28,484 nt of DNA from a virus (taxonomy: Duplodnaviria > Caudoviricetes), in IMG/VR virus record IMGVR_UViG_3300020043_000805, positions 1-28,484 of that record. One strand, written 5' to 3'. Within the stretch, counting starts at the first letter, position 1, and every line of letters starts with the position of its first letter. The notes under the pieces were generated by a model. That model was not told the DNA's origin and did not search any database. It saw nothing but the letters and a program-made list of their open reading frames with translations. Below, one piece after another: positions 1-28,484 of the stretch. The position numbers and the translations under genes are program-made.

Positions 1-1636
1 CGTCTAAATCTATCTTCTTATCCGGCGTTACTGGGGCACTCTTTTTAGATCTAGTGACTCCGTTTTCTTTATACATCGTACCTTGTGTAGGTGACGCACT
101 TGGTGTTTGAGCAGTAGCAGTTTGTGGTGGAGTCTGTGGAGTGGTTGCACCGCCTGTCCACGCATCGGGTTGAGTGTTATCTTGAGTACCAGACACCTTA
201 CTGTTAATAGCTGAGCCTATGTTTTTAGCCCAATCAGGTAAACTTGGTACTGCCATTAAATCTTTTGCTACTTCAGGCATATCACCTTGCATAGTGCTAC
301 TTGGGGTTTGCCCAGACAAAGCTTGAGCTAACAGCGCGTTAGACCCACCTGTAAATTTATTTGCCATAGCAAGGTCACCAATAGGCGACAAAGCACCCGC
401 TATTTTAGCGATTGGGCGACCAACAGCACTAGCTGCTTCACCTAAACTACCTAACCCTTGTTTTGCTTTAGCCGCCATTTCCTCAAATGTCGTCGCACCA
501 GGAGCCATAGGGTCACCTAGTTTAATATCGTTAGCTTTATCAGCCGCCGCCATTCGTGATGCCATCGTATCTATACGTGGTGGACTTTGAGCTGCCGCTG
601 ACATACCTTCAGTCATAGATGGAGATGGTGCTGTTTTTGGTTGAACACTAGCTCGGTGCATAGCATTTAGTCTATCGGCTTCACTCATCTTAGCCCACAT
701 TGTATCTAATGGGTTTTGTTTAGCGGCAGCGGACATTTGCTCAGTCATAGAAGGTGGAACATTTGGTATTACGTTTCTATTAGTGACATCGCCCAACTGC
801 ATTTGGCGACCCATATCAGTAGCTTTTAGCTTAGCTGCATTCTGGGCTTCTTGTTCCATTAAACGCTTAACCATCGGGTGAGTGTCACGTTCTAGTTGTG
901 ATAGCACACCTCTATTAGCTGCATCGCCTAAGTGCATTTTCCGCACCATTTCAGTGGCTCTTAACCTAGCCGCATTTTCGGCGTCTTGTGCTTCTAGTAG
1001 TCTCGGGTCAAGTCCACTGCTATTAAGATTAGGGTCATAGCCAAATAAAGATCCACCCTCTACAAAACCACGAACATCACCGCCTTCAGCGAAGCCTCGA
1101 CTAAGGAACTTTCCAGACGCCATATCTCCAAGGTTGCTCATAAAGTTTTCGGTGGTAGGTGCTTTAAAGATAGAATTGTCTATCATAGACTGAAGCAGCC
1201 CATGTTTCTTTTCTTGGGCGTTAGGGTCTTGTGAGTTAGGCGGCATATAGTTAGGCATACGCGCTGAGGTAGCTGGCTGTTGGTTTGGCACCATAATGCC
1301 TGCGTAAGTTCCAGTGCCTGGTTGTGTTAGACCGCCACTCGCATAGCCTTGAGCCGCAAAGTTAGCAGGTATCTGACCTGAACCAATAAGCTGAGCAAGC
1401 ATCTGGGATTTATATAAGTCAGCGTTTTGCGCTTCACTTTCCTGCTTCATTTGAGCATCGATAAGCTGTTGCTGAATGTTACCCGCTACTGTGCCTTGTG
1501 GTGCTTGACCTTGAGGCTGTCTCATTTTATTGCGTTCTAGCATTTCTGACTGCGCGACAAGTTTTGCCCAAGGGGAGTTATTAGGGCTTTGTTGAACCTG
1601 ATTTAGTTGTTGGTCTTGTAAATATTTAATGCTCAT
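1..1636 (-). CDS. Putative ejection/internal virion protein, 3'-partial (runs off left edge); missing from the ORF track
   Basis: ATG at 1636 preceded by AGGGG SD. Translated by hand: MSIKYLQDQQLNQVQQSPNNSPWAKLVAQSEML...GYASGG...RGFAEGGDVRGFVEGG...VTPDKKIDLD, same frame at both ends and at internal checkpoints. Q/A/P/M-rich, directly downstream of another ejection-type gene. Confidence 0.75.
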   Translation of the reverse strand, partial: MSIKYLQDQQLNQVQQSPNNSPWAKLVAQSEMLERNKMRQPQGQAPQGTVAGNIQQQLIDAQMKQESEAQNADLYKSQMLAQLIGSGQIPANFAAQGYASGGLTQPGTGTYAGIMVPNQQPATSARMPNYMPPNSQDPNAQEKKHGLLQSMIDNSIFKAPTTENFMSNLGDMASGKFLSRGFAEGGDVRGFVEGGSLFGYDPNLNSSGLDPRLLEAQDAENAARLRATEMVRKMHLGDAANRGVLSQLERDTHPMVKRLMEQEAQNAAKLKATDMGRQMQLGDVTNRNVIPNVPPSMTEQMSAAAKQNPLDTMWAKMSEADRLNAMHRASVQPKTAPSPSMTEGMSAAAQSPPRIDTMASRMAAADKANDIKLGDPMAPGATTFEEMAAKAKQGLGSLGEAASAVGRPIAKIAGALSPIGDLAMANKFTGGSNALLAQALSGQTPSSTMQGDMPEVAKDLMAVPSLPDWAKNIGSAINSKVSGTQDNTQPDAWTGGATTPQTPPQTATAQTPSASPTQGTMYKENGVTRSKKSAPVTPDKKIDLD

Positions 1637-1649
1637 TTATGTTATCCCC

Positions 1650-3926
1650 TTATTTTGTTTGTACTACTGTACTAGCGTTGCTATTTTTTATCCCAGCGTT
1701 TTCAGATATAGCTTGCCCTTTAGTTAAGTCTAGCATATCCATTTCTTTTGATTTAGCTATCGCTGCTTCTAGTAGCGCCTGCCCTGCGGCTCTTTCGCTA
1801 GCATCAGTGCTGTTGAGTAGGTTAGTTGCAAGCTGTACATTATTGTTATATGCAGTATCAATAGCCGCTAAACCTTGTGCTCCTGTAAGCCCTGTAGTAT
1901 AAGCATTTATTGAAGCGTTAAGCGCAGCTAACCCATTTTGAACATTATTCTGCGTGGCAGTTGTAGACATCTGAGCTGCTTGTTGCGCCGCTTGTTCTTT
2001 TGCAATAGAGGCTTGTAGTGCGTTAGCCGCGTTAGCGGTACTTGCCGTGAGACCCATCTGACCTGCTTGTTGTTTCGCTTGTTCGTTAGCGATAGCCGCG
2101 TTAAGCGCGTTAGTCGCGTTAGTAGAGCCTGCAGTAATAGCTTGTTGTCCAGCCGATTGTTTCGCTTGTTCCTGTGCAATAGCCGCGTTAAGTTGATTAG
2201 CTGCGTTAGCGGTGCTCGCTGTAAGACCCATCTGACCTGCTTGTTGTTTTGCTTGCTCGCCTGCGATAGAGGCTTGTAGTGCGTTAGCTGCGTTAGCGGT
2301 GCTCGCTGTAAGACCCATCTGACCTGCTTGTTGTTTCGCTTGCTCGCTTGCAATAGAGGCTTGTAGCGCATTAGCCGCATTAGCTGTCGCCGCTGAAATA
2401 CCCATTTGACCTTCTTGTTGTCTTGCTTGCTCCTCCGCGATAGCTGCTTGTAGAGCATTAGCCGCATTAGCTTGGCTTGCCGATAAGTTTCCAGCCGCCG
2501 CCGCTTGTTTTGCTTGCTGAACAGCTTGGTAAGCATTTATGGTGTTAGAGGCATTATTTTGCTCTGCTGTTAGTTTAAGCTGAGCTGCTGTCTGTTTTGC
2601 TTGTTCTAGGGCTTTAAAGTTTTCCATAGAGTTATTTTCGTTGAACTGCTGTACTGCTACGTCCACCGCTCTATCTGCATTAAACTGAGCAACAGCCGCA
2701 TTATAGGCTTCTTGCTGTCCTTTAGTGGTTATATCACTGAGGAGCTGGTTGTAATTTCTCTCTCCCTCTGCTTCAACAACCCCTTGACGATAGCCACCAA
2801 ATGCACCTGATTGCGTCGCCGCTGTGTTTTCTTTTAGTCTTTCTATCCCTCGTTGACGCTCCGCTTCACGCAAAGCAATATCGACTACACCTTTAGTGTA
2901 TGGACTCATGTACTGGTCCATCGCCGCTTGGTTCCATTTATCGGCTGTTACGTCTTTAATAGTGTGTGTGCCAGCCGTATAGTCGCTAGTCACAGCGGTA
3001 TTAATTTTATCCATCTGGTCTGGCGTGTAGCTGTACGACACTGTTCCAGGTGTGATGGTTCCCGCCTTGTAGTTACTCGCTATCGCCGTTCCAGGCGATA
3101 TTGTCCCAGCCGTATAACCACTTGATACTGTTCCAGGCGATATTGTTCCAGCCGTATAGCCACTTGATATTGAAGATGGCGCCGCGATGGTTCCCGCAGT
3201 GTACGCACCTGTCACTTTATCTGGAGCTGTGATGGTTCCGCCAGTATAAGGGCTAGTTATTGTTGTTGCACCTATTGTTCCTGGTGTAGTGTAGGTGTTA
3301 GATACTTGATTTGGTTGAACGCCTGTCAGACCAAATAGACCACCAAGATTGGCATTAGTTATCATCTGAGCAAATAAATTAGGATTACCTGCATTACCTG
3401 ATGAGACTTTAGCTGTGTAATCTCCACCGGATACCGTGTCGTTACCTGAAGCACCAACGAGCGTGTCTTTAGTCAGACCACCAGCGAGCGTGTCTTTTAG
3501 TGGGGTAATTCCAGCATTATTGGTACCTACTGCTGGAGGATTAGCATTTAAGTACCCCTGCATAGCAGCCGTATCCGTGTAATCTCCTTGATACCCTGCA
3601 TTAACCGCTTGGTTCTCTAACTGCTGCTGACTAAGAGGTGTGTAGGTGTTATCCACTGGTTGAGCAGTAGTGCCTCCCCCGTCTTCAAATCGCCGCACAC
3701 TGGTTATTCCTCCCTCGGCAAACCTATTGGAGAGCTTATGTGCCATGTCCTGAGCTTTATACCAGTCCGCTGTTCTACCAGCAACGAGAGGGCCTTTATA
3801 TGTCGGTCCATTATAGCTATTTGCCCATTTGTCAAAGTAACCCATCGACTTTTTTAGAGCCGCCTGACGGGTTGGGTCGAGCATTGTGGTCTGCGTAGTG
3901 CTTGATGGAACTGATGAACCGCCCAT
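1650..3926 (-). CDS. Ejection (DNA-transfer/pilot) protein, P22 gp7-like by position and motif
   Basis: Start moved from 3968 to ATG 3926 (GAGGA SD 7 nt upstream; removes overlap with the preceding gene). N-term MGGSSVPSSTTQTT, core YMSPYTKGVVD...SGAFGGYRQGVVEAE, long A/Q/N helical repeats; follows the GNAT-like gene. Confidence 0.7.
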   Translation of the reverse strand: MGGSSVPSSTTQTTMLDPTRQAALKKSMGYFDKWANSYNGPTYKGPLVAGRTADWYKAQDMAHKLSNRFAEGGITSVRRFEDGGGTTAQPVDNTYTPLSQQQLENQAVNAGYQGDYTDTAAMQGYLNANPPAVGTNNAGITPLKDTLAGGLTKDTLVGASGNDTVSGGDYTAKVSSGNAGNPNLFAQMITNANLGGLFGLTGVQPNQVSNTYTTPGTIGATTITSPYTGGTITAPDKVTGAYTAGTIAAPSSISSGYTAGTISPGTVSSGYTAGTISPGTAIASNYKAGTITPGTVSYSYTPDQMDKINTAVTSDYTAGTHTIKDVTADKWNQAAMDQYMSPYTKGVVDIALREAERQRGIERLKENTAATQSGAFGGYRQGVVEAEGERNYNQLLSDITTKGQQEAYNAAVAQFNADRAVDVAVQQFNENNSMENFKALEQAKQTAAQLKLTAEQNNASNTINAYQAVQQAKQAAAAGNLSASQANAANALQAAIAEEQARQQEGQMGISAATANAANALQASIASEQAKQQAGQMGLTASTANAANALQASIAGEQAKQQAGQMGLTASTANAANQLNAAIAQEQAKQSAGQQAITAGSTNATNALNAAIANEQAKQQAGQMGLTASTANAANALQASIAKEQAAQQAAQMSTTATQNNVQNGLAALNASINAYTTGLTGAQGLAAIDTAYNNNVQLATNLLNSTDASERAAGQALLEAAIAKSKEMDMLDLTKGQAISENAGIKNSNASTVVQTK
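1944..2639 (-). repeat. 8 x 87-nt (29-aa) tandem coding repeat, consensus AANALQASIAxEQAKQQAGQMGLTASTAN
   Basis: First and last EQAxQ Glu codons at 2606 and 1997 differ by 609 = 7 x 87; near-identical DNA copies begin at 2201 and 2288. Confidence 0.95.
2937..3293 (-). repeat. 8 x 14-16-aa tandem coding repeat, consensus YTAGTIxPxxVxSx
   Basis: Units YTTPGTIGATTITSP / YTGGTITAPDKVTGA / YTAGTIAAPSSISSG / YTAGTISPGTVSSG / YTAGTISPGTAIASN / YKAGTITPGTVSYS / YTPDQMDKINTAVTSD / YTAGTHTIKDVTADK; 42-nt DNA period at 3088 and 3130. Confidence 0.9.
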
Positions 3927-3928
3927 AA

Positions 3929-4330
3929 TTAAATCCTCTTTTCGTAAATGGTTTCGCCTTCTCTCCACCCAGGTATCTTGTTTATGGCTTTATGCCAACC
4001 TCTACGGGAGGAAGTAAATGATATTTTGCTTGCACCAAACTCTCTGGCTATGGTGTCAACGTCTTGGTGATACTTAACTAAAGCTTCACCTTCTAAACTA
4101 TAGGCAGCCCATACGAATAACGAAACTTCATGTGTCAACTCGTCTGTAAGCAGTTTGAATACGATAACCCCGTCTGGAGTCCTGTAGACTCTGGCTTGCC
4201 CTAATATAGCCGCCATGTAAACATCTTCAGGAATCCAACCTTTGGTATTCGTTTTATTTATGAGACATTCTAAAGCATTACGGATAAAATCCCAAGACTC
4301 TCTAATGTTTTCGCAGTAGATAAGTTGCAT
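3929..4330 (-). CDS. GNAT-fold acyltransferase-like virion assembly protein (T7 gp13 / P22 gp14 positional analogue)
   Basis: 133 aa; C-half pattern LFVWAAY...IAREFGASKISFTSSRRGWHK resembles phage GNAT-like proteins; lies between ejection genes. Confidence 0.6.
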   Translation of the reverse strand: MQLIYCENIRESWDFIRNALECLINKTNTKGWIPEDVYMAAILGQARVYRTPDGVIVFKLLTDELTHEVSLFVWAAYSLEGEALVKYHQDVDTIAREFGASKISFTSSRRGWHKAINKIPGWREGETIYEKRI

Positions 4331-4331
4331 A

Positions 4332-5951
4332 CTACACAGGCATTACAGATTGAGGTTCTACAGGGTTCGCTTGTTGTATGTGCCCATAAGCTTGTTGACG
4401 GACTCTATCAAGCATTTCATAAAGCACCTTTGCTCCAGCTTTGGTTGAACCAGACCCTAATGCAGATACCACATCAGCGGGGATTACAAACTCAGAATCA
4501 GCTAAACGTACAGGCTCTTGACCTTGCTCACCTTCAATCAAGCCAGCAATTCCATCACTTTGCCCTGTACCGGGGCCATGTAATAAGCCTTCGTCACCGC
4601 CGCCAATATCACCACCTTCAGCGTAGCCGTAACCAATAGCGCCACCATCAGCATACCCAATAACTTCATGGCGAATAGGTTGTGTGGATTGCAAAGGTTG
4701 AGCTTGTGGCATCATGCTCTGTGGGTAGAAATTGGACATGGACTGCTGGTTAATGTAGCCAGACGGAATAGCACCTAAACCCTGAACGTCACGAATTGTA
4801 CCGCCAGCGGCAAAGCTTTTTCTTTTATTAGCAATATCGGTTAGCCCTTTGGGTAATTCATTAGGCATAATCCCTGCTTTTCTATACTGTCCAACAATAT
4901 CCGCTGCTTGTTTTGCGCCAGCTTGTTCAGTTAAACCTTGTTGTTTATAGCTATCTTCAAGCCCCGCCATACCTAACTGTGCTGTGAGTAGACCCTGATG
5001 TTGCCCTGGATTCATTACGGTGTTTTTTAAGCCAGTAAAGCTTTGGCTCATAGCATCACCAAAAGATGGGTTTGGGTTAGCTAAGGTTGGGTTAGTGTAG
5101 GGTAGGCCTGTATGATTTGTGTCTAGGGCGTTATAAGACATAGACTCACCTGTGAGCGGGTCTTTTTCTACTGTCGGTATTTCACTTGCTTTAGCTAAAT
5201 CTGCGGGGGCGTTTGTAAAATTAACAGGAGCAGCGCCAGTAAGCTTACCTGCGTTAGCCATTATTTGATCGGACTTAGCTAAGTCTGCTGGAAGCCCTGA
5301 AAAACCTGCGCCATCAACTGGAGGTACGGTTGAGGTAGCAAAGTCAGGTGTTATCAATTTAGATGCGTCACCTAGCAGGTTAGTTTGTGTTGCCGTTGGC
5401 GCTAGATTTCCTAAACCCTGAGTAGCACTATCCGTTAGCCCTGGAGTAATAGCGTCTTTGGCTACGTTGCTTATATTTTGCGCCGCTACATTACCTGTAC
5501 CTTCTGCCACTGCTGCATTACCTGCACCCGCAGCTCCACCTAGACCACCAAGCGCACCAGACCCAGCACCAAACGCTGCTGCCATGCCAATATCTTGGTC
5601 ACCTTTAATAGCCGCTTTACCTGCATTAAGACCTGCACCTGTGGCGGCACCAGCAAGAGCGCCAATACCCATAGCACCAGCACCACCAGCCGTTACACCC
5701 AAAAGAGCAGGAGCGGCAGCGGCAGCCGCGCCGCCTGTAAGAGCGGCAGCTATACCAATACCAAGACCTGCTAGGATGTCAGTTAAGTCCATCGCTTCGG
5801 TCATACCTGTTACTGGGTTTTTTGAGAGAGGGCGCTTGTTGACTAGATGGTTAAGAGCATTAAGTCCAGCCACCTCTGCTTGATTCATGTGGACAAGCGT
5901 GTCATCGCCTCCACGACCATATTGTGCTAATTTATTGGCTACGCTGTGCAT
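4332..5951 (-). CDS. Putative ejection/internal virion protein with Gly/Ala-rich hydrophobic segment
   Basis: Start moved to ATG 5951 (AGGAG SD). N-term LAQYGRGGDDTLVHM...NPVTGMTEA, glycine-zipper-like ILAGLGIGIAAALTGGAAAAA, C-term YAEGG...GPGTGQSDGI...VRLADSEFVIPADVVSALG. Confidence 0.65.
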   Translation of the reverse strand: MHSVANKLAQYGRGGDDTLVHMNQAEVAGLNALNHLVNKRPLSKNPVTGMTEAMDLTDILAGLGIGIAAALTGGAAAAAAPALLGVTAGGAGAMGIGALAGAATGAGLNAGKAAIKGDQDIGMAAAFGAGSGALGGLGGAAGAGNAAVAEGTGNVAAQNISNVAKDAITPGLTDSATQGLGNLAPTATQTNLLGDASKLITPDFATSTVPPVDGAGFSGLPADLAKSDQIMANAGKLTGAAPVNFTNAPADLAKASEIPTVEKDPLTGESMSYNALDTNHTGLPYTNPTLANPNPSFGDAMSQSFTGLKNTVMNPGQHQGLLTAQLGMAGLEDSYKQQGLTEQAGAKQAADIVGQYRKAGIMPNELPKGLTDIANKRKSFAAGGTIRDVQGLGAIPSGYINQQSMSNFYPQSMMPQAQPLQSTQPIRHEVIGYADGGAIGYGYAEGGDIGGGDEGLLHGPGTGQSDGIAGLIEGEQGQEPVRLADSEFVIPADVVSALGSGSTKAGAKVLYEMLDRVRQQAYGHIQQANPVEPQSVMPV

Positions 5952-5959
5952 GACTGCTC

Positions 5960-6187
5960 CTATACTATTTTTACTGTACCACTGTCGTTCCACAAAGACC
6001 CTGATGCGAGTCCCGCGCTACTGGTGGGTAAATCGGTTAATGTGATGGTTGTAGCCCGCATGGGGCCTGGGTTCTGTAGAGCAGTGAAATAAAAGTTAAG
6101 GATACGCACCACTTGATTCGCCCAGTTTTGGTCATATTGTACTGGAGGCACGGGTAAAATGGGTACTTGTATATTATTTGAAGCCAT
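5960..6187 (-). CDS. Small conserved virion protein downstream of the nozzle gene
   Basis: 75 aa, LPVPPVQYDQNWANQVVRILNFYF...SGSLWNDSGTVKIV; tightly packed between neighbours on the coding strand. Confidence 0.7.
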   Translation of the reverse strand: MASNNIQVPILPVPPVQYDQNWANQVVRILNFYFTALQNPGPMRATTITLTDLPTSSAGLASGSLWNDSGTVKIV

Positions 6188-6190
6188 AGG

Positions 6191-8062
6191 TCATCTTTTG
6201 CCATCAGGAGTTAATTCAAGTCGCGGTATGCCAAGTGACCACTGCGTACCTGTAGATTCGCTTTCAATTCTAAACGCTATTTGACGCCCACGTAGTCGTA
6301 ACCATTTTTGTTGTGTGAACTCTTCAATAGGCACCGCTGTTGTCCGCGTAATAGGTTCGTCAGTTTCTTGGTTATACGGACCGCCCGGAAAGTCTTTAGC
6401 GTACAGTTTCATTGTAACAGCAGGGGTTGTATCTGTAGACCCTGAGAACGTAATATCAGGAATAAGTCGTTTAACAAATGTAAAATGATCTCCATCATCG
6501 AGATCAAAATCCGCTGACTGAATAAAGGCGGCTATAGGCAATTCTGTCCCTGTCGCATTATCCGCTAGTCCGTTCTCTTGATAGATTAGATTTCCGTCTA
6601 TTGCAGCAATAGGGTAAGACCTTTGTGGGCAGTCAATCCAGGCTGTTCTGTCTATAGTTCCGTAGTACCAAATACGTTCTTGGTAGTTGTAAACCACATA
6701 TTTATCGGGGGATACGGCATTAGCGGAGCAGTAGAACCACCAGATTTCACTAAATTCACCAACAGACCCAACAAACGTCTGTGTTTCTTGAGCAAAGTTA
6801 AAGTCGTCAAATATGTACTGGCGAAGTGAGCAAGGTAGGGTTTCAACTGTACCGTTGTAGGTAAAGAACTTTTTATGCCCCATCCAATAGGTGATGTTGT
6901 TTACCGATATGGCTGCAAAAGGCGATGCTATTGTGATGTTAGTTGAGCGTGGTTGAAAATTAAAGGTGAAAGGTGTCCCAACGTACTGTGCTCCATACAG
7001 TGCACTATCGGTAAAGATAAGTGTTTCTTGACGTGTTTTTATTGCTGTGACAATGGAGTCGCCATAAGTTAACCTATACCCACCAGCCGAAGTAGTTATG
7101 CTTGGTGTCCAAAGTGCGGGGTTGTTTTGATCTGCCCAACGTACAAGCATAGGCGTTTTTGTTGTCTCACCTATTGCATTGCATCCAAGTGCCATTACGT
7201 GGTTTTCATCTGTGACAATAATGCCAGTAACAACTGTGGGGCAGTCCGCAGCGCTGGGAAGGGAGCTAAGTTTAACTGCTTCAGTGTTAGGTATGCCATA
7301 GGCGTCAACACTTGTAGATGTTGCCCAATAATAAATTTCACCGTTTGATGGAGCAAGTATTAGTTGTTGTCCGTATGTGTCTTGTGTCCAATACCCAAGT
7401 TGTTGAGGAATACCGCCAGATGTAGCCGCACTACCCCAAGGACCTCTGCCCCAAGTACCAGCACCCCAACCAAGACCCACTACGTTAATAGGCAATCCCG
7501 CAGAAGCTTCAAATTTTAATACAATAACTGACCCACCATCTGAAGCTGTTGTTGTAGCAGGGGTTGTTACTTGAAATGTAAACGTGCTTGTATCTAATAC
7601 AGTTATTTGGTGAGTGGTGTTAATTTCCGCTGCGGGTACACCGCTAGTGGTCATCACTGCGCCAGAGATTAAAATATAGTCATTTGTAGACGCGCCGTGA
7701 TTAGCATAAGTTATGCTCACAGTCCTTTGCCCTGAAGTTAAACTTAGGGGGTTAGCAGGGGTGAGAGGGGAAACGATAAGTCTATAGGGTGTGATGTTAT
7801 AAAGCGTCCCGCTAAACTCTATGAAGAAACGAATGTTTGTGCCTATGCCTGTATAGTTATTACCTACAATCGACGTCCAGTTTCTTAGTGACCGACATAC
7901 ATCTGTATAGCTATTAAAGTTAAATTTTTGCCACCCACCAATATTTTGGGGAAACCCTGAGCGAAATCTTACCTTATTGCAGGCGTACCAACCACCCTCG
8001 TTGGCATAATTAGTCCCTTCACGAGATACCCCAGGGCGAAAAGTTATCGATTTAAGTGGCAT
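6191..8062 (-). CDS. Tail nozzle / packaged-DNA stabilisation protein (P22 gp10 / T7 gp12-like beta-propeller) with a small FCCH-like inserted domain
   Basis: 623 aa; MPLKSITFRPGV...GGWYACNKVRFRSGFPQNIGGW, LVRWADQ, EIWWFYCS...KYVVYNYQERIWYYG, C-term LRLRGRQIAFRIES...PDGKR; AAGGTG SD; upstream of the ejection genes. Confidence 0.75.
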   Translation of the reverse strand: MPLKSITFRPGVSREGTNYANEGGWYACNKVRFRSGFPQNIGGWQKFNFNSYTDVCRSLRNWTSIVGNNYTGIGTNIRFFIEFSGTLYNITPYRLIVSPLTPANPLSLTSGQRTVSITYANHGASTNDYILISGAVMTTSGVPAAEINTTHQITVLDTSTFTFQVTTPATTTASDGGSVIVLKFEASAGLPINVVGLGWGAGTWGRGPWGSAATSGGIPQQLGYWTQDTYGQQLILAPSNGEIYYWATSTSVDAYGIPNTEAVKLSSLPSAADCPTVVTGIIVTDENHVMALGCNAIGETTKTPMLVRWADQNNPALWTPSITTSAGGYRLTYGDSIVTAIKTRQETLIFTDSALYGAQYVGTPFTFNFQPRSTNITIASPFAAISVNNITYWMGHKKFFTYNGTVETLPCSLRQYIFDDFNFAQETQTFVGSVGEFSEIWWFYCSANAVSPDKYVVYNYQERIWYYGTIDRTAWIDCPQRSYPIAAIDGNLIYQENGLADNATGTELPIAAFIQSADFDLDDGDHFTFVKRLIPDITFSGSTDTTPAVTMKLYAKDFPGGPYNQETDEPITRTTAVPIEEFTQQKWLRLRGRQIAFRIESESTGTQWSLGIPRLELTPDGKR

Positions 8063-8075
8063 AGTTCACCTTTAT

Positions 8076-8429
8076 TTATCCGTTCCAACGTGCAATTTTA
8101 CCATCACGAACATCAATATGCGTAAAAGAATTGTAGCGTCCAAGTCCTTTGCACTCTAAGTTAAAATGCTTCATTAGGTATTCTTGCACGTCATTAGGCT
8201 CAACCCCTTTTACTTGAATATCGGCTGCATTACCTAGAACGTGTTGGCTGTTCTTTGCACCGCCTACTTTAGTGTTATGTGCTTTACAACGCCTACCACT
8301 CATAATGGTAATCGGTTTACCAAATGATTTTCGAATACGGTCTAGCAAGTCAACGAGTTTTGGGTTTACGTCCTTCTCTCCGCACCCGCAGTGACACTCA
8401 AATTCTTCTGGCTTAAAGTATTCGCTCAT
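8076..8429 (-). CDS. Endolysin, peptidase M15A family (Zn D-Ala-D-Ala carboxypeptidase fold)
   Basis: Start moved to ATG 8429 (MSEYFKPEEFECHCGCG). Motifs SGRRCKAHNTKVGGAKNSQHVLGNAADI (SxHxxGxAxD) and FTHIDVR (HxD). Confidence 0.92.
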   Translation of the reverse strand: MSEYFKPEEFECHCGCGEKDVNPKLVDLLDRIRKSFGKPITIMSGRRCKAHNTKVGGAKNSQHVLGNAADIQVKGVEPNDVQEYLMKHFNLECKGLGRYNSFTHIDVRDGKIARWNG

Positions 8430-8430
8430 A

Positions 8431-8619
8431 CTAGCTACCTTCTGATACAAATAACCCAATCATACCAAAAACAACACCAGCCGCAGTTAAGCCATCGTGA
8501 ATAGGACCAGCTTCGATATTCATACCTGCCATCGTTGCTAAGGCTGCCACACTCGCGTGTGTAGACGGCTCTTTTAGTCGAGCCGTTAAGTAGTTCCATG
8601 CTTTAAGTAATTTACCCAT
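8431..8619 (-). CDS. Putative holin
   Basis: 62 aa, basic N-term, RLKEPSTHAS motif, two hydrophobic stretches, immediately upstream of the endolysin. Confidence 0.65.
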   Translation of the reverse strand: MGKLLKAWNYLTARLKEPSTHASVAALATMAGMNIEAGPIHDGLTAAGVVFGMIGLFVSEGS

Positions 8620-8620
8620 T

Positions 8621-8872
8621 TCACAGCTCCGCTAATTTTTGACGTAGTTGATCGATTTGTAGTTCAATATCTGCAAGCCAGCCGTTGTCTGTACCTAAAA
8701 TAGCTTCACGGGTTCTACGAGGTGTAATCGTTGCTTCAATTGCTGCAATTTCAGCCTTAATTAACATTTTAGGTTGCTCTTTTGCGTAGACTGCTTGTTC
8801 CTCAGCCCATTTTATTTCTTCTTCTGGTGTAAAAGGAATGTTACCTTCTGATGTTGCGTGATAGTTTGGCAT
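8621..8872 (-). CDS. Putative tail-fibre assembly chaperone
   Basis: 83 aa, IPFTPEEE...AEIAAIEATITPRRTREAILG...IDQLRQKL; directly follows a fibre gene. Confidence 0.6.
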   Translation of the reverse strand: MPNYHATSEGNIPFTPEEEIKWAEEQAVYAKEQPKMLIKAEIAAIEATITPRRTREAILGTDNGWLADIELQIDQLRQKLAEL

Positions 8873-8881
8873 AATATAACC

Positions 8882-10312
8882 TTATGATTTAGAAACGCCG
8901 TAAAGACGAAATGTTCCAGATAAAATAGTCCCAGACGAAGCATAAAATTGAATTCCCGTCATAGCAGACGCAGTGGTGGTGTTCCACCCTCCACTACTAA
9001 TTATTTCTGCTTCACTGGTTGCTCGACACACACCAAATACATCAATCGTTTTTTCATTGCTAGTAGATGCAGGGCTGTGTATATTTACGTTGAAGCTTGT
9101 TGGGCGATTATTTCTAAGATAATTTCCGCTAAATAGTCTTATTTCATTTAGCAGAGTTCCTGGATCAATAGATGATCTGTATGTAGCTGTAGTCAAATAA
9201 CTGCCGCCAATCTTCATTCTTACCATTAAATTAACGGAATCTGTAGTTGTATAAAGGTTTGTTACTTTTAACACATATTCATCGTATGTCGCGTTAAATG
9301 TAGTTTCAATATCTACTGTAGCTGAAGAAGATGCGGTAACAGTAGAAAGAAAAACAAGCGCACCAGATGCAGATGATGGTGTACCCCATGTAGGCGCACC
9401 TGCACCCGAAGATGTTAAAACTTGACCCGATGTCCCAGCAGCAAGCATGGCTGTTGTGCCAGACGCTGATTGATATGGAATTGTACCTGCGCTACCAGAA
9501 GCTAGGTTTGTAGCTGTAGTTGCCGTGCCTGTCGTATTTTGATTAAGCGTCGGGAATGTACAATTAGATAAATCACCGCTGGTAGGAGTTCCTAAAATAG
9601 GCGCAATTAAAGTTGGCGTGTTATTAAATACATTTACGCCTGTACCAGTTTCATCAGTTAATGCCGCTGCTAAATTAGCACTAGATGGTGTTGAAAGAAA
9701 TGTATCTACGTTTGTCCCAAACTGCGTAGAATTAAACGCAATATTCCCCGTCATCGTGCCGCCAGTGGTTGGCAAGTAACCAGTTACTGATAATGATTGA
9801 AAGCTAGGAGGCGTGCTTCCCCCATTAGAGGTATATACATACCCTGCTGTACTTGCTGGAGCCAAATTAGTTGCAACAGCTGGGGTAATCTCAACAAAGT
9901 CAGAACCATTCCAAGCTACTATAGATGTTTTACCTGAAAGAATTGTCACACCTGTTGTAGGTCCAGCGCCTACGATTTTAACTGACCGAGAGGTGGATGT
10001 TGCATTGATAACAACATAGGTTTTATCTGTTGCTGGGGCAGTGATAGTCAACAAACTTGCAGGGGAACCTGTACAACGAATAATCTGATACTGTGAGGAA
10101 CCCGAACTTCCTGACCCTACTTGACTTAGACTTGAACCTGTCGTTTTAGATAATGTAACCGCTGTCGAACTACCGCTAATAACTTGCGCTCCCGCAATAG
10201 AAGAATCTAAGTAGTTAGTGATATAGTTATTAACTGTATCCCCCCAAGTACCAGAAAGCTCCCCTGTAACGGGTAGGGCTAACCCTAAAAGTGATGTATA
10301 TGATGTTGTCAT
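8882..10312 (-). CDS. Tail fibre / receptor-binding protein
   Basis: 476 aa S/T/G-rich; N-term anchor LGLALPVTGELSGTWGDTVN, shaft motifs LPTTGGTMTG and GTSGQVLTSSGAGAPTW, C-term tip GALVFLSTVTASSS...GIQFYASSGTILSGTFRLYG. Confidence 0.8.
   Translation of the reverse strand: MTTSYTSLLGLALPVTGELSGTWGDTVNNYITNYLDSSIAGAQVISGSSTAVTLSKTTGSSLSQVGSGSSGSSQYQIIRCTGSPASLLTITAPATDKTYVVINATSTSRSVKIVGAGPTTGVTILSGKTSIVAWNGSDFVEITPAVATNLAPASTAGYVYTSNGGSTPPSFQSLSVTGYLPTTGGTMTGNIAFNSTQFGTNVDTFLSTPSSANLAAALTDETGTGVNVFNNTPTLIAPILGTPTSGDLSNCTFPTLNQNTTGTATTATNLASGSAGTIPYQSASGTTAMLAAGTSGQVLTSSGAGAPTWGTPSSASGALVFLSTVTASSSATVDIETTFNATYDEYVLKVTNLYTTTDSVNLMVRMKIGGSYLTTATYRSSIDPGTLLNEIRLFSGNYLRNNRPTSFNVNIHSPASTSNEKTIDVFGVCRATSEAEIISSGGWNTTTASAMTGIQFYASSGTILSGTFRLYGVSKS
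9744..9765. repeat. 22-nt exact direct repeat ttccccgtcatcgtgccgccag, copy 1 (encodes GGTMTG on the minus strand)
   Basis: Identical to 16170-16191; 9731-9766 also matches 16226-16261 at 32/36 nt. Confidence 0.95.
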
Positions 10313-10321
10313 GTTTTTAAC

Positions 10322-11161
10322 CTAGTTTGTAATGATGGGTGTCCAATTTGGGTCTTGTGATGCGGTAATTGATGTCCAGTTAGCAGTCTGTGTATCATCT
10401 ATAAGCTCCCATAAAAAACGAGCGGTGACGGAGTCAATTGTATAAACTGTTTCATTTATTGTAATTGAATATACCACATTAGAACTAACTACGTCAGTAG
10501 CACTGTTTGGCTCTATTATATCAACTAAGAATGAAGCTAAAGCTAGTTGAGAATCGCTTGTAGTTATACTTTCTAATATATCAACAAATACAGATAATCC
10601 ACCAATTAACGTGTCAGTAGCTGTAGCTGCTTCTGTTAGGTCACACTCAATATCTAAGGTAGTTGTTTGTGTGTCACTAGCTGTAGCAGACTCGGTTAAA
10701 TTACCTGCAAATAACAGTCCAGCGATTACAGATGAATTTGCAGTTACAGACTCTGCCGCATCTACACTTATTGATATTACTGCGGTTTGGTCATCTAATA
10801 AAGTAGATAACTCTGTTAAGTCACTCGGTATGGATAAGGTGCATAAAATGCTATCTAATGAGGTAATTGTCTCTGTAATTTGCGCTAAAGCAGATAAGTT
10901 ATTTACCTGACTATCAACGGCAGTAACGCTCTCTGATATTACTGTTGAATAAACTATATAAGCATTCTGTGCATCTGAAGCGGATACTGTCTCTGCAATT
11001 ATACTACTTGGTGTACCTCCCCACGCATCTTGCCCCCATGTACCATATCCCCATGTGCCAGGATTAAGAACAATACCTACTAAATCAGACGGTGCTTTTA
11101 AACTGCTAGCCAACCCAAAATTAATTGGGTTCATTATTCCTAAACTTGATATTAAAGGCAT
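10322..11161 (-). CDS. Virion protein with ten 20-aa E-x5-D repeats (putative fibre ruler/core)
   Basis: Glu every 20 residues from aa 57 to 237 (nt 10394-10993), Asp at +6 in 9 of 10 units; N-term WGYGTWGQDAWG; C-term Trp-spaced WELIDDTQTANWTSI...NWTPI. Confidence 0.65.
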   Translation of the reverse strand: MPLISSLGIMNPINFGLASSLKAPSDLVGIVLNPGTWGYGTWGQDAWGGTPSSIIAETVSASDAQNAYIVYSTVISESVTAVDSQVNNLSALAQITETITSLDSILCTLSIPSDLTELSTLLDDQTAVISISVDAAESVTANSSVIAGLLFAGNLTESATASDTQTTTLDIECDLTEAATATDTLIGGLSVFVDILESITTSDSQLALASFLVDIIEPNSATDVVSSNVVYSITINETVYTIDSVTARFLWELIDDTQTANWTSITASQDPNWTPIITN

Positions 11162-11170
11162 AAATAATCC

Positions 11171-12136
11171 TTAAGCAAATTTAGAAACAGCAGCTAAAAC
11201 AGTGAAAGTTGCATTAGCAGTTTTAATAATAGCATAAGTATAAACATCAATTGATGATGCGTTTCCAGAACTTGGTGCTGTTCCACCTTGCCATTTTGGT
11301 GTTACTGTTGTTCCATCTACTTGTACCACATTATTATAAAAAGCAGTTGCCCCATTTGTTACCATAAACGTAATGGTTATAGTTTGCCCTACAGACATTG
11401 CAGTATTTAAAGTTGTCCCTGCTGAATGACGAAGATTTAATGTCCAGTTAGCTGAAGCATTTGTTGTGTAATACATAACAGATTGCGTTGCTGTGTAATA
11501 AGCAATCGTACCAGTAGCCGCAGTAGCAGAAACCGTAGTTGTTTCAGCCGCATTTGCAAAAATAGCCGCTAATGTTGTTGATGTGCCATTAAATGTTTTA
11601 GTTCCTGTAAATGTGCTTGAAACATTTATAACATCAATATTTGCTCCAGCTAAAGTAGTAGCACCTGTACCGCCAGAACCAATTGCTAAAGTAGCTGATA
11701 ACCCTGCGGCTGTACCAGTAGTGTTTTGGTTCCATGTAGGTACAGTACCGCTTAGATTGGCGTAAGTATATCCAGTAGCGTTTGTAAGCGTACCACTAGA
11801 AGGTGTTCCTAAAGGACCGCCTTGGTAAGTTGCTTTTCCAGCAGGGTAGGTAACAAACACATCCTTAGTTCCCGCAGTAAACGTAACTAAGCTACCAGCG
11901 TTACTGGAAGCTAATACTGTGTCACGACTTAATGTATTACCAGATGTTGTATAAGTACCAATCCCTACTTCCCAGTTAGCGCCAGTTTGGTCTGCTATGG
12001 TGTAGTAAGTCGTGTTTGCATTACCTACTGCTGAGGAGAATGTCTGATACCCTGTAGCAGCACCAGCTAAAGTAATAGCGGTAGTGCCTGTAGATGTCGT
12101 TGTTTCCTTAACTCTATCCGCTAAAACTAAAGCCAT
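11171..12136 (-). CDS. Fibre/appendage protein
   Basis: 321 aa T/A/G-rich; N-term MALVLADRVKETTTSTGT...WEVGIGTY...TLSRDTVLASSN, C-term PKWQGGTAPSSGNASSIDVYTYAIIKT. Confidence 0.7.
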   Translation of the reverse strand: MALVLADRVKETTTSTGTTAITLAGAATGYQTFSSAVGNANTTYYTIADQTGANWEVGIGTYTTSGNTLSRDTVLASSNAGSLVTFTAGTKDVFVTYPAGKATYQGGPLGTPSSGTLTNATGYTYANLSGTVPTWNQNTTGTAAGLSATLAIGSGGTGATTLAGANIDVINVSSTFTGTKTFNGTSTTLAAIFANAAETTTVSATAATGTIAYYTATQSVMYYTTNASANWTLNLRHSAGTTLNTAMSVGQTITITFMVTNGATAFYNNVVQVDGTTVTPKWQGGTAPSSGNASSIDVYTYAIIKTANATFTVLAAVSKFA

Positions 12137-12145
12137 ACATCACCC

Positions 12146-12724
12146 CTAAACTGAAGCTGTGTAAGTAACAAGAAGTGAGTCGCCAGATACAACAGCGCGG
12201 CTACCACCAGTAAAACTACCAGCAGAATAGAGAATACCAGCACCGCCATTAGAAGCTGTATTACGAGCTTGTGTTGTACACATAATCGCACCAAGTACAG
12301 TACCTGTACCACTAATCGTAAATGTAGTTGCTGTAGTTGCTTTTGAGCCAGCAGAAGCTGACCCCCAACTTGGTGTTGCTCTGTTTGTTGAACTTCCTGA
12401 AATAGTATAGTCTAAAAACTCAAGCCAACCAGCGTGCGAAGCAAGTGTATCACCCGCCGCGTAAGCACTAAATGAAGCATTGTCTACAAGACCCATGTAC
12501 CACCCTGCGGTATAAGCTGACCCTGAAAAGTATTTATCCAGTAAGTCATTTTTACCCACAGTCACTACTAAGTTTTTAATAGAGTCTTCCCATTTCAAGT
12601 TACCATCTGCATCAAGGCATTTAACTTCGTATGAGCCTGTAATGTTTACTTGTTCATCAGCACTGCCCCCACGGATAAGGTTTACACCTGCTGAGTCTTG
12701 CGCATCTACTTTTTCTGAGTGCAT
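12146..12724 (-). CDS. Small beta-rich virion protein, putative fibre subunit
   Basis: 192 aa; GSYEVKCLDADGNLKWEDSIKNLVVTVGKNDLLD...WYMGLV...RAVVSGDSLLVTYTASV. Confidence 0.6.
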   Translation of the reverse strand: MHSEKVDAQDSAGVNLIRGGSADEQVNITGSYEVKCLDADGNLKWEDSIKNLVVTVGKNDLLDKYFSGSAYTAGWYMGLVDNASFSAYAAGDTLASHAGWLEFLDYTISGSSTNRATPSWGSASAGSKATTATTFTISGTGTVLGAIMCTTQARNTASNGGAGILYSAGSFTGGSRAVVSGDSLLVTYTASV

Positions 12725-12744
12725 ATTTATTACCTAATTATTAG

Positions 12745-13182
12745 TTATGAAAAACATATTAAAGCTGTGTTTGGAGCTGCTATAGGCATCGTAATTGTAA
12801 AAACCCCGTCAGTTGCAGACACATCAAGCCCAAAATTAAGAACCAAAACTGCTTTATTTGACTTAGAGCTATTATAAATCAAAGCGCCTCGCGCTACTAT
12901 ATCTGTACCAGTCCACTCTGCGTTATCGAACGTAATATACGTCTGCGGTCCAGTTTGAGGTTGAGCTACGGTTATAGATTGCCCAGTAAGTATCTCACCG
13001 CCTGTAGTGTACCCAGTAGCCAAAACCTCTCCTGATACAGTGTAAGCTGTTGTGGTAGCCCCAATCTGTGCGTTATCAGTGTAGAGAGCTATTTTAAAAA
13101 CGTCTCCACCAACAGCGGAAAAGTTATGAACCCCTTGAAACAGTTCTTCTCGAAAGCTATTACATAAACATTGGGTAATCAT
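12745..13182 (-). CDS. Small beta-rich virion protein, putative fibre subunit/attachment protein
   Basis: 145 aa; CNSFREELFQGVHNF...FKIALYT...GYTTGG...ARGALIYNSSKSNKAVLVLNFG...FTITMP. Confidence 0.65.
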   Translation of the reverse strand: MITQCLCNSFREELFQGVHNFSAVGGDVFKIALYTDNAQIGATTTAYTVSGEVLATGYTTGGEILTGQSITVAQPQTGPQTYITFDNAEWTGTDIVARGALIYNSSKSNKAVLVLNFGLDVSATDGVFTITMPIAAPNTALICFS

Positions 13183-13190
13183 ATCTTTTC

Positions 13191-13469
13191 CTATTTAACC
13201 GCAATTCTAGTTTGACCAGAACGATAAGCGTCTTGACGTTGTTTACCATCACCAAGTTCTTTTAAGATACCTAGAGCTTCAGTGTACTTTTGATTATATA
13301 AAGTAAGTAGCTCGGTTTCGCCTTTCATATAGGTGTAAGCTTCAACTAACGATCCATACAGTAAGACAGGATCAAAATTATCACCAAGCCAAGTAGTTCC
13401 GGCAGTAACAATAGACTCTGGGTAGTAAAAATAATGTAGCTCAACTTCGTAGTCATCATCGGGCATAGG
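13191..13469 (-). pseudogene. 5'-truncated head-tail adaptor (gatekeeper) gene fragment of the short-tailed phage
   Basis: PMPDDDYEVELHYFYYPESIVTAGTTWLGDNFDPVLLYGSLVEAYTYMKGE...YNQKYTEAL...QDAYRSG matches the remembered C-terminus of ~200-aa adaptor proteins; I find no matching N-terminal half in the window. Confidence 0.65.
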
Positions 13470-13931
13470 ATTGTTTTTTCCAGTAACCCAAGGTTTTGGC
13501 TTTCCTATTTGATACGTTGCTATTTTTAGCTTAGTTTCGTCTGATAGTATTTTACCCTTATTACCAGCTCTAGTATTGTATGTACATAAATCTATAAATA
13601 CGTTTCCTACTTCATACGCACCTAAATCACCTATTCTACACATACAGTATTTACCTTTACCTCGCCCTCTTAAGTGTAATTTATCAGATTTTTCCCAAAT
13701 ATCTAGCCATTCTTCGTATGATAAGTTAAAAGAAATTCCTCGTGTTTTAGCATTACTCTTATGCCGTAAAAATCCACCGTAAGGAGTGCCTTTAAGTTGA
13801 TTTAAGTACGCAAGGTATCTAATTTTTTCACATTTTTTGCAATTGCTTATAGGTCTATTTGTACCTGTGCGTTTTGCAAATTCCAAAATATCTTTTGTTT
13901 CTTTACATTTTGAGCATATTTTTTGTATCAT
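13191..13931 (-). CDS. Chimeric ORF: Zn-finger/HNH-like/NUMOD3 homing endonuclease fused in frame to the C-terminal ~90 aa of a head-tail adaptor
   Basis: Likely start ATG 13931 (AGGTGG SD). CSKC...CKKC, AKTRGISFNLSYEEWLDIW...YCMCRIGDLGAYEVGNVFI...N, LSDETKLKIA...GKNNPM, then abruptly PDDDYEVELHYFYYPESIV. Confidence 0.75.
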   Translation of the reverse strand: MIQKICSKCKETKDILEFAKRTGTNRPISNCKKCEKIRYLAYLNQLKGTPYGGFLRHKSNAKTRGISFNLSYEEWLDIWEKSDKLHLRGRGKGKYCMCRIGDLGAYEVGNVFIDLCTYNTRAGNKGKILSDETKLKIATYQIGKPKPWVTGKNNPMPDDDYEVELHYFYYPESIVTAGTTWLGDNFDPVLLYGSLVEAYTYMKGETELLTLYNQKYTEALGILKELGDGKQRQDAYRSGQTRIAVK

Positions 13932-13960
13932 AGCCACCACCTTTTGTTAAGTAATGGCTA

Positions 13961-13988
13961 AGTATACTATAGTTTACGCTACGCTCAA
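13961..13988 (-). promoter_or_regulatory. Possible sigma70-type promoter for the endonuclease gene
   Basis: Minus strand TTGAGC-16 nt-TATACT, 30 nt upstream of ATG 13931, overlapping the end of the fibre gene. Confidence 0.3.
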
Positions 13989-17556: not shown

Positions 17557-17557
17557 A

Positions 17558-25353: not shown

Positions 25354-25736
25354 TTTTTCTTGCTCCGTTGTGCAATTTGCTCGGCTTGGATTGTTAAGTA
25401 AGCACTATCAAGGCGCATAATAGCACTTACTTCTAATGGTGTTAATTCAATATTGGTCAATCGTGACCAAGCGTCAATCTCACTATAACTAATTGGATTT
25501 TGACCAAATCCATTGCTGGAACGTGTGCGGCTTAATTCACCAAACCACGACCAGCAATGTCTGTAATTTTCTGGCATAGGCAGCGACTTATAATCGTCTG
25601 GTATCTCATGCCCCATTGCAACAATAGCTTGAGCTTCATCGCGTAAACTTGACCCGTTATCGTTTGTTTTGCTGAGTTCAAACTCGCGTTTGCCAAACGT
25701 AACAAGGTCATCAATTAGGCTTTGGTGAAGTTTCCC
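25350..25736 (-). CDS. Tail assembly chaperone, -1 frameshift extension (lambda gpT analogue)
   Basis: The -1 frame is open from the slippery site: LHQSLIDDLVTFGKREFELSKTNDNGSSLRDEAQAIVA-MGHEIPDDY...WSWFGELSRTRSSNGFGQNPISYSEIDAWSRL; ends overlapping the tape measure start. Confidence 0.85.
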   Translation of the reverse strand, partial: GKLHQSLIDDLVTFGKREFELSKTNDNGSSLRDEAQAIVAMGHEIPDDYKSLPMPENYRHCWSWFGELSRTRSSNGFGQNPISYSEIDAWSRLTNIELTPLEVSAIMRLDSAYLTIQAEQIAQRSKKK

Positions 25737-26294: not shown

Positions 26295-26302
26295 TTTTTC
26301 TA

Positions 26303-26347
26303 GGGGGTTCGCGTTCGTTCCTGTTCGTGTTCCCCCGCCTTTATTTA
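26303..26347 (+). terminator. Post-capsid hairpin, possible leaky intrinsic terminator or mRNA stabiliser
   Basis: GGGGG-TT-CGCG-TT-CG-TTCC-TG-TT-CGTG-TT-CCCCC then GCCTTTATTT, 8 nt after the capsid stop. Confidence 0.5.
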
Positions 26348-26357
26348 TGGCGGACTT

Positions 26358-28474: not shown

Positions 28475-28484
28475 GAGGTTACAA

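Follow-up and report, generated by a model that had tools for sequence, protein, structure and literature searches.

The 28,484-nucleotide viral contig IMGVR_UViG_3300020043_000805 (Caudoviricetes), analyzed here over its whole length and referred to as the window, encodes on its minus strand a 758-residue protein, P0001, in which a conserved core is flanked by two tandem arrays of eight units each. These are an N-terminal array of 14-16-residue units (the N array) and a C-terminal array of helical 29-residue units (the C array). Across the homologues of P0001 the two segments flanking the core obey a common length rule, in which each residue on the N-terminal side is matched by about two on the C-terminal side. 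We believe that P0001 is probably an internal-virion-module protein of a podovirus-like phage, in which the eight N and eight C units pair one-to-one as an antiparallel hairpin, with a parallel three-chain rod as the predicted assembly. The gene is divided as follows, with structural assignments from AlphaFold2 (AF2) and its predicted local distance difference test score (pLDDT):

1653..3926, minus strand: focal coding sequence (P0001), 758 amino acids, from the list of open reading frames (ORFs) and its translation; stop codon at 1650-1652, start at the ATG at 3926.
3672..3926, minus strand: conserved N-terminal domain, residues 1-85, ending in the FAEGGITSVRRFEDGG motif; near-invariant columns in alignments A1, A2 and A4.
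3402..3671, minus strand: variable linker, residues 86-175; the most divergent region between homologues.
3294..3395, minus strand: conserved N-side anchor NAGNPNLFAQ...GGLFGLTGVQPNQVSNT, residues 178-211, the distal end of the N-side segment; invariant or near-invariant columns in A2.
2937..3293, minus strand: N array, 8 units of 14-16 amino acids, residues 212-330, predicted non-helical; unit parsing, AF2 coil with pLDDT <50.
2808..2936, minus strand: linker and first core helix (WNQAAMDQY-MSPYTKGVVDIALREAERQ...ATQS), residues 331-373; invariant Y339, M340, P342, Y343, V347, E354, A355, R357, A370 and T371, AF2 helix at 342-372.
2793..2807, minus strand: GAFGG turn, residues 374-378; invariant G374, A375, G377 and G378, helix break in both AF2 models.
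2640..2792, minus strand: second core helix, residues 379-429, continuous into the C array; invariant Y379, R380, G382, A386, E387, R390, D398, I399, G403, A407, Y408, A411, Q414 and F415, AF2 helix at 378-478.
1944..2639, minus strand: C array, 8 units of exactly 29 amino acids, residues 430-661, helical; Tandem Repeats Finder, unit parsing and AF2.
1653..1943, minus strand: C-terminal region, residues 662-758; conserved GAQGLAAIDTAY anchor around 679-693, plus a tail of about 70 amino acids; near-invariant columns.

An earlier reading of the letters of this DNA had described eight units on either side of a core running from MSPY (residues 340-343, window 2898-2909) to GAFGG. This description is borne out, and the interval 1944-3293 brackets both arrays exactly. 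The N array (119 residues) consists of the units 212-226, 227-241, 242-256, 257-270, 271-285, 286-299, 300-315 and 316-330, with the consensus YTAGTIsPGTVssG, which is Thr/Ser/Gly-rich, has one Pro and contains a 5+5+4 sub-pattern (h-T/S-x-G-T); the units of the C array (232 residues) have the consensus AANALQASIAsEQAKQQAGQMGLTASTAN. Tandem Repeats Finder also detects both arrays in the DNA: at 1968-2471 an 87-nucleotide period is repeated 5.8 times (score 460), and at 3088-3169 a 42-nucleotide period 2.0 times (95% matches). Counting outward from the core, the first two units are divergent in both arrays, as had been noticed from the sequence (N array, 37% and 18% identity between adjacent units; C array, 41% and 37%), and units 4 and 5 are indeed the most similar adjacent pair in each (97% amino acid and 93% nucleotide identity in the C array, 73% and 78% in the N array).

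A search with the core (residues 320-445) yielded 62 homologues of 436-810 amino acids among 516 candidates, and scans of viral and metagenome contigs supplied further full or partial genes. On the N side the length was taken between the Q of P.Q[IVL]...Y, a motif C-terminal to the conserved Gly-rich NAGNP... stretch, and the M of MSPY, and on the C side between GAFGG and the I/L of the conserved ...IETAY motif. Both anchors are present in 68 of 71 family sequences, the other three (L049, L050 and P0010) being truncated and dropped; P0062, P0063 and distant loci, which lack the extended motif of the family, lie outside the measurement. The 68 rows represent 24 distinct (N,C) states, ranging from (25,101) to (137,333), and the two lengths are strongly correlated (Pearson r 0.992 over the rows, 0.969 over the states) along the line C = 1.94 N + 54-57. 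Removal of eight near-identical sequences (P0011-P0018, hereafter the swarm) leaves 18 states with a slope of 1.985 +/- 0.053 and r 0.994. The original prediction had proposed one-to-one co-variation of the repeat counts as its test: the lengths are linearly related with r 0.97-0.99, and the counts are equal in 12 of 22 array-bearing sequences (4/4 in three, 5/5 in one, 6/6 in three, 7/7 in two and 8/8 in three), but they differ by one or two units among sequences with identical flanks.

The rule extends beyond the repeats seen in P0001. Repeat-free lineages fall on the same line, as in (25,101) versus (30,112), a difference of 5 versus 11 residues, as do lineages with unrelated unit sequences, at (40,134), (55,156), (78,203), (92,228) and (112,266); the 1:2 length rule is independent of the repeat family. 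It also has a counterpart at the level of single units: in one subclade a short 9-residue N unit (YTAGTF[NK]N[DG]) accompanies a short C unit of 18-19 residues, and the index of the short unit, counted outward, is equal in both arrays, being 5 and 7 in P0008 (which has two in each), 7 in P0013 and 8 in P0018. In swarm members with mismatched counts the short unit of either array is still the penultimate one from the distal end. These correspondences amount to about two independent events. By eye, and in P0001, P0003 and P0004 only, AP-type N units show a partial overlap with GQQ-type C units.

With a helix rise of 1.5 Å per residue, the slope of 1.94-1.99 translates to 2.9-3.0 Å per N-side residue, and on this basis the N-side segment would be a nearly straight, polyproline-II (PPII)-like or beta-like chain without slack. 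Comparable values come from the short units (9 against 18.5 residues, 3.1 Å), from the 5/11 difference between the repeat-free states (3.3 Å) and from the two-unit block of P0008 (23/47, 3.07 Å). The regression intercept, about 51-57 residues, fits the second core helix segment (379-429) and would be consistent with the first core helix (34 residues) pairing with the beginning of the second. The claim that both arrays come to about 35 nm likewise survives, 232 residues at 1.5 Å giving 34.8 nm and 119 at about 3 Å giving about 35.7 nm. The N array further shows a hydrophobic period of 2.925 residues (power 50.1, as against 39.1 for the 95th percentile of shuffles); this would suit a PPII chain with three residues per turn, but it is also a harmonic of the unit length and is only suggestive.

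The AF2 monomers are poor (mean pLDDT 52.8 for P0001 and 48.7 for the repeat-free P0048), and their consensus features are a non-regular N segment, a helix break at GAFGG and a single long helix through the C array, whose pLDDT in P0001 is 74-88 over 521-560 and 581-650 and 45-74 over 430-520. With alignment A2 as input, we also ran ESMFold2 on residues 271-546 in three copies, a segment that spans the core and units 1-4 of both arrays. It scored 0.52 overall (0.52, 0.54 and 0.22 in the separate runs), as against 0.00 for the best of three controls; a mark of 0.52 is reached by 20 of 30 proteins solved as pairs and by 1 of 23 solved as single chains. The three-copy runs show at least 70% contact agreement, and the partner pLDDT is at least 66. 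In the predicted trimer the helices are parallel and in register (427 with 428, 441 with 443), with an interface spacing of 4,3,4,4,3,4,4,3, or eight positions in every 29. Two of the copies contribute residues 273-332 to the confident predicted interface, and residue 325 of one copy contacts 429 of another; extrapolated by the slope, this modeled pair would bring the two distal units, the first of the N array and the last of the C array, face to face with an error of about 10 residues. The idea of a hairpin with extended units packed along helical ones, put forward in the original prediction, thus gains from the length co-variation and from the place of the N array in the three-copy interface, but the AF2 monomers are uninformative on this point.

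Shared ancestry was controlled for with a tree built from the flanking regions, with the arrays excluded (68 rows, 280 columns). Among 67 independent contrasts 28 are non-zero, with the two arrays changing in the same direction in 24, in opposite directions in 2 and in one array only in 2. Fourteen branch-disjoint pairs could be drawn; nine are concordant, with a median dC/dN of 2.04 (range 1.71-3.22).

The role assigned to the protein derives from its neighborhood, in which the following genes adjoin or lie close to the focal one:

3929..4330, minus strand: upstream 133-residue gene (PHROG 610, phrog_610), a candidate IVP-A-like (IVP, internal virion protein) assembly protein; ends 2 bases before the focal start codon.
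4332..5993, minus strand: 553-residue Gly/Ala-rich module protein; phrog_342 'internal virion protein with endolysin domain', E 3e-07 over residues 71-271.
2..1636, minus strand: downstream module gene, 545 residues visible, running off the contig; from the ORF list, about 810-985 residues in relatives.

The 133-residue gene directly precedes the focal gene both here and in the relatives L003 and L005-L007. Its product has viral GNAT acetyltransferases as its nearest named Atlas clusters (0.84-0.85, a lead only) and shows no BLASTP similarity to the acetyltransferase of Ochrobactrum phage OH. In the relatives the upstream genes comprise the terminase, an 822-residue portal, the capsid protein and an SU10-like adaptor, then fiber genes and an M15 endolysin; next come a 623-residue virion protein (phrog_3287), the Gly/Ala-rich internal-virion-like protein, the 133-residue gene and the focal gene, followed by a protein of about 810-985 residues, a 1480-1928-residue protein with a lysozyme-like domain and a primase gene on the opposite strand. 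In podovirus operons a small acetyltransferase-family IVP-A is described before IVP-B, with large helical IVPs after it (PMC4819975), and the ejection proteins of Pa223 are described as following a comparable operon logic (bioRxiv 10.1101/2025.06.11.659172). As read from the predicted genes, then, the order in the relatives is the layout of the podovirus internal-virion (ejection) operons.

Further, phrog_4287, labeled 'DNA ejection protein', is matched by 17 of 26 distant core homologues (E <= 0.01; best 2.7e-30); as P0001 has no PHROG match of its own, its link to this family is transitive via the shared core. In Ochrobactrum phage vB_OspP_OH and Octadecabacter DB virus 2 a core-domain gene lies between an acetyltransferase and a cell-wall hydrolase, with the acetyltransferase directly before it in the former and one 218-residue gene intervening in the latter. 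A profile of 184 core sequences showed, with hhalign, no similarity to P22 gp7, gp14 or gp20 or to T7 gp13, gp14 or gp15 (probability <=0.2; 0.1 against both P22 gp7 and T7 gp14), and Pfam P22_gp7 is unmatched in P0001 and 28 relatives, an Atlas hit (0.88 with a 22% share) being a lead only. It is the gene context alone that points to an ejection-protein function, and the trans-envelope conduit or zippering element suggested in the original prediction would be conjectural. The motif [FYLMW][AGSV][EDASQN]GG (RFAEGGITSV, GFAEGGDVRG, GYADGGAIGY) occurs seven times in the three ejection-module proteins of the window (2-1636, 1653-3926 and 4332-5993, all on the minus strand), the 553-residue protein having three [FY]A.GG motifs, and twice in the tape-measure-like protein (19078-25353, minus strand), whereas a scan of 20 further ORFs found none. 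Possibly it serves these proteins as a common signal for docking or packaging.

A number of observations weigh against this picture. The anchors of the length measurement were chosen by us, and those of P0050 and L004 were placed by hand; moreover, the homologues were assembled from short metagenomic reads, a process that can collapse or expand identical repeat units. The standardized contrasts give only r 0.33 and a slope of 0.46, because zero-length branches inside the swarm receive huge weights, and owing to this distortion the sign counts and branch-disjoint pairs were used instead. Five of the 14 branch-disjoint pairs are non-concordant (one opposite, two N-only, two C-only); four of them fall in the swarm, whose members have the same or almost the same flanking sequences. 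By a sign test, p is 0.021 when same-direction pairs are set against opposite ones, but 0.42 when they are set against all others. Within the swarm the two lengths are independent: (95,275), (137,275), (123,304), (137,304) in three sequences, (123,333) and (137,333). The original prediction had counted 29 residues over eight turns, or 3.625 per turn; such eight-per-29 spacing appears in the predicted trimer interface only, and hydrophobicity along the C array has its spectral peaks at 4.15, 2.225 and 3.225 residues rather than at 3.625. Neither AF2 monomer places the N segment confidently. As for the trimer, the calibration of the tool used two copies and the job three, one of the three runs of the complex reached only 0.22, and the best run leaves the N array of one copy outside the confident interface. 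For P0001 itself no PHROG match reaches E <= 0.001 and no Pfam match the cut-off (nor did the Pfam scan reveal an AgI/II domain, an S74 domain or a recognized receptor-binding domain), a search of the PDB with profile A1 gave one chance-level match (E 0.13) and no sequence relative, and there is no similarity to the P22 and T7 ejection proteins compared above.

The position of the youngest duplicates likewise counts against a simple pairing of units, for it usually differs between the two arrays. The original prediction had taken its coincidence at units 4 and 5 to imply a coordinated expansion; this is not general among the 22 array-bearing relatives, with P0001, P0002 and L003 having the youngest duplicate at an equal index in both arrays and most other sequences not. 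As these indices differ, the expansions appear to have been independent and matched later, rather than simultaneous. Simultaneous duplication, as read from the 4/5 coincidence, was dropped as a candidate, the index match failing in most relatives. In the swarm, the recurrence of (137,304) in three distinct sequences indicates that a mismatch of at least one unit is probably real. Over the long term, then, the matching of the arrays is strict, and over the short term either array changes independently by 1-3 units.

Raw sequencing data add little to this. Twenty runs from 11 studies, mostly freshwater, lake or other aquatic metagenomes (with one soil and one estuary), hold 21-46% of the sampled words of the gene. 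In four of the freshwater runs (X1, X2, X3 and X7; window 1600-4000) the Logan contigs break up inside the arrays; they are short, the longest listed having 707 bases, apart from one of 1198 on the 5' end of the gene and the region upstream. In run X7 one joint skips 87 nucleotides (one C unit) and another 42 nucleotides (one N unit); these joints are not linkable on one molecule and may stem from relatives or repeats, making them neutral with respect to co-variation.

In the arrangement that we favor, the extended N-side chain would lie along the C-side helix over its whole length, with the GAFGG turn at the tip of the hairpin and the N-terminal domain, the NAGNP...PNQV motif and the C-terminal 70-100 residues meeting at the base of the rod. 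Each unit pair would add about 4.35 nm, so that eight pairs would give about 35 nm in addition to about 8 nm for the core. Three copies are modeled as an in-register parallel coiled coil, with the N arrays of neighboring chains in the interface. Going by the gene context, the rod would be packaged in the capsid and used in genome delivery as a strut or needle of set length. Its arrays would change by separate events of slippage or recombination, with selection then restoring equal lengths. A more elaborate version seems to us rather doubtful: it posits a large podovirus family with a trimeric needle of helical repeats, each clasped by one extended repeat from the same set of chains, a rigid rod as thin as the tail channel that the paired gain and loss of repeats would lengthen or shorten in steps of 4.35 nm. 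This needle would leave the virion before the DNA, with a length adjusted to how thick the host envelope is, or would zip up from an unpaired packaged state to penetrate the envelope, in the manner of a viral fusion hairpin.

The same lengths could arise in other ways. Were the C array a rigid rod and the N array a mere linker, with no specific packing, that must equal the rod in length for the N-terminal domain to dock on the C-terminal end of that rod, co-variation would be predicted as well, and the unstructured N array in AF2, the tolerance of mismatches of 1-2 units in near-identical sequences and the youngest-duplicate indices that do not match between arrays would all be accommodated. 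However, a slack linker predicts an inequality and not a tight line at about 3.0 Å per residue with deviations both ways. Nor does it sit well with N units that are conserved, Tyr-anchored and hydrophobically periodic at 2.925, with short N and short C units at equal index, or with residues 273-332 in the confident interface of the trimer model, and we regard it as unlikely. Co-variation alone also does not separate direct contact from a common external length, and the arrays could be out of contact, each matched to a partner protein, the portal or tail channel or the host envelope; ejection proteins are indeed described as acting in multi-protein assemblies (PMC4819975; 10.1101/2025.06.11.659172). 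Yet, for C lengths of 286, 101, 101 and 101, the downstream neighbors measure 984, 876, 955 and about 811 residues and the upstream ones 881, 503, 508 and 501, and so do not track them. A fixed channel would hardly account for a spread of up to five unit pairs (about 22 nm) between close relatives, short units that agree in index require the two arrays to be in register, and the homotrimer model has N-C contacts without any partner. These points render such a third-party ruler improbable. Least credible, to the point of being nearly dismissible, is that the N array forms a beta-spiral or beta-helix placed end to end with a C-terminal coiled coil, with equal counts due to coincidence or shared ancestry. 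The 14-16-residue units with Gly/Pro turns do recall the 15-residue triple beta-spirals of adenovirus and reovirus, and the 5+5+4 sub-pattern fits as well, but this would leave unexplained both the 1:2 residue law over 24 states, unrelated unit types and repeat-free lineages and the index-matched short units, and the AF2 predictions contain no strands.

A different kind of alternative leaves the rod architecture possibly unchanged and places it outside the virion, as a trimeric tail fiber or needle. A Peptidase_S74 domain is present at the C-terminus in 2 of 28 relatives scanned (L017, 46.9 bits; L037, 31.3 bits), both distant members. S74 is an intramolecular chaperone domain typical of trimeric fibers and spikes. 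Its occurrence in these relatives fits a trimeric state for the family, and at the same time keeps the external reading alive. Homologues in isolated phages are annotated as 'tail fiber domain-containing protein' or 'tail spike protein/chaperone', and length variation among close relatives is common in fibers. Against this, the gene comes after the endolysin, between the Gly/Ala-rich internal-virion-like protein and giant proteins with lysozyme-like domains at the far end of the structural operon, separate fiber genes lie upstream, and PHROG 4287 carries its ejection label. S74 is absent from the focal protein and its 62 close homologues, and the Pfam scan found no recognized receptor-binding domain in the focal protein. 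We therefore hold an external location to be unlikely too, and retain the internal-virion rod as the preferred reading.

The streptococcal antigen I/II stalk is, by analogy, the closest known architecture. Its repeats measure 82 residues (A) and 39 residues (P), a ratio of about 2:1. In these adhesins (SpaP/P1, SspB and BspA) the Ala-rich helical and Pro-rich PPII arrays of one chain are described as intertwining into a stalk of >50 nm, with an apex domain and an N-C lock at the base (PMC7732690). The likeness lies in helical and extended arrays of matched length (here r 0.97-0.99, slope 1.94-1.99) flanking an apex domain. However, P0001 is unrelated to them in sequence and reverses their order, the extended array being N-terminal and the helical one C-terminal. 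Its units are much shorter (14-16 and 29 residues), the extended ones are not Pro-rich, and the Tyr is on the extended strand rather than on the helix. It is also a predicted parallel trimer and a candidate member of a phage ejection module, in contrast to a cell-wall-anchored adhesin.

Among phage proteins, the resemblance to T7 gp13-gp16, P22 gp14/7/20/16 and, as far as their published descriptions go, Pa223 gp53-56 is one of genomic setting: the focal gene is immediately preceded by a small, candidate IVP-A-like gene, and the series of large and mainly helical proteins to which its product belongs closes with a giant that carries a lysozyme domain. It differs from the T7 and P22 ejection proteins in that its core shows no profile similarity to them. 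A full-text search, with most subscription journals outside its reach, found no published account of length-matched flanking arrays in ejection proteins. In the post-fusion hairpins of class I fusion proteins (influenza HA2, Ebola GP2) the chain returns antiparallel on the outside of a central parallel trimeric coiled coil, in part as an extended 'leash'; these differ in having no tandem arrays, and neither a conformational switch nor membrane insertion is indicated for the focal protein. Repeats of 29 residues are also described in the segmented coiled coil of SF-assemblin (PMC2119799). SF-assemblin forms filaments in eukaryotes, lacks a paired extended array and is unrelated to P0001 in sequence.

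The ejection proteins of short-tailed phages rank among the least understood components of virions: their sequences evolve rapidly, most of them escape detection in cryo-EM reconstructions, and their conformation changes during ejection. Here, comparative sequences alone yield a quantitative structural rule, by which helical residues outnumber extended ones two to one while the lengths vary five-fold. If correct, this would fix the topology of one ejection-module protein and predict its length to within a few nanometers. It would also show, within a single natural gene, how two tandem arrays evolve in compensation for each other, and would extend to phage proteins an alpha/extended hairpin-stalk design known from streptococcal adhesins. 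As the core has 3570 cluster representatives (E <= 0.001) and no Pfam family in the 29 proteins scanned, the rule may apply to many phages.

The whole of P0001 found nothing by tblastn against 50,697 phage records, nor did a megablast of 25 kb of the window or tblastn with the distant members P0180 and the L018 ORF; the 97-residue core query alone matched six phage records. Paired periods with ratios near 1:2 flank the core in distant members too (18/36 in P0126 and P0135, 16/33 in P0180 and P0080), in repeats that are unrelated in sequence and have weak scores on the N side (5-17). The C-side periods across the family (18, 29, 33, 36, 44 and 58) are all sums of 7 and 11. One distant core protein (L014:9500-12949) is fused to a glucosaminidase domain (E 9.4e-25).

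Elsewhere in P0001, a longer ORF call (1650..3968, minus strand) opens at a GTG; we took the ATG at 3926 as the start because the homologues begin with the same MGGSSVPS. In the N-terminal domain AF2 predicts helices at 18-37 and 53-70 with low confidence. The variable linker contains an RTX-like GG.T.DT..GG nonapeptide stretch (residues 145-169, window 3420-3494) and a 27-bp tandem repeat at 3435-3494. The sole Pfam signal in P0001 is HemolysinCabind (E 0.0011, 19.3 bits, under the 23-bit cut-off), and PF00353 is precomputed in the corresponding linker of four homologues (P0025, P0028, P0035 and P0042). The C-terminal tail has a constant length of 70-75 residues in the homologues.

The contig itself appears to be chimeric or mosaic, with parts at 1-13940 and 13191-28484. 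Its GC content is 0.45-0.48 over 1-8 kb but 0.35-0.39 over 19-26 kb. Podovirus-like relatives match the left part, and the tape-measure gene of the window is found in none of the five of their contigs searched. The right part, with a 2091-residue tape-measure protein, a chaperone and genes of 507, 284 and 282 residues, matches 60 siphovirus-like contigs, and none of these carries the endolysin, the 623-, 553- and 133-residue genes of the ejection module or the genes of 145, 192 and 249 residues; in three of the 60 a short tblastn match to the focal protein lies within the 3' end of the tape-measure gene. The siphovirus-like locus has the order adaptor, tail terminator, chaperone, tape-measure. 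Relative to it the adaptor-to-terminator genes of the window (26358-28474, plus strand) are inverted, and the tail tube gene is missing. The junction of the two parts is likely the 249-residue ORF at 13191-13940 (minus strand), which has an HNH/NUMOD-like N-terminal half and continues as an SU10-type adaptor of which only the C-terminal part is present (positions 109-188 of the 194 in the PF24175 profile and 118-192 of 208 in phrog_2941); the relative G004 has the whole adaptor, of 218 residues. Finally, a 476-residue protein at 8882-10312 (minus strand) has tblastn matches in 19 of the 60 siphovirus-like contigs, downstream of the tail genes, with 71% identity in L096, which suggests a fiber or receptor-binding module shared by both types of phage.

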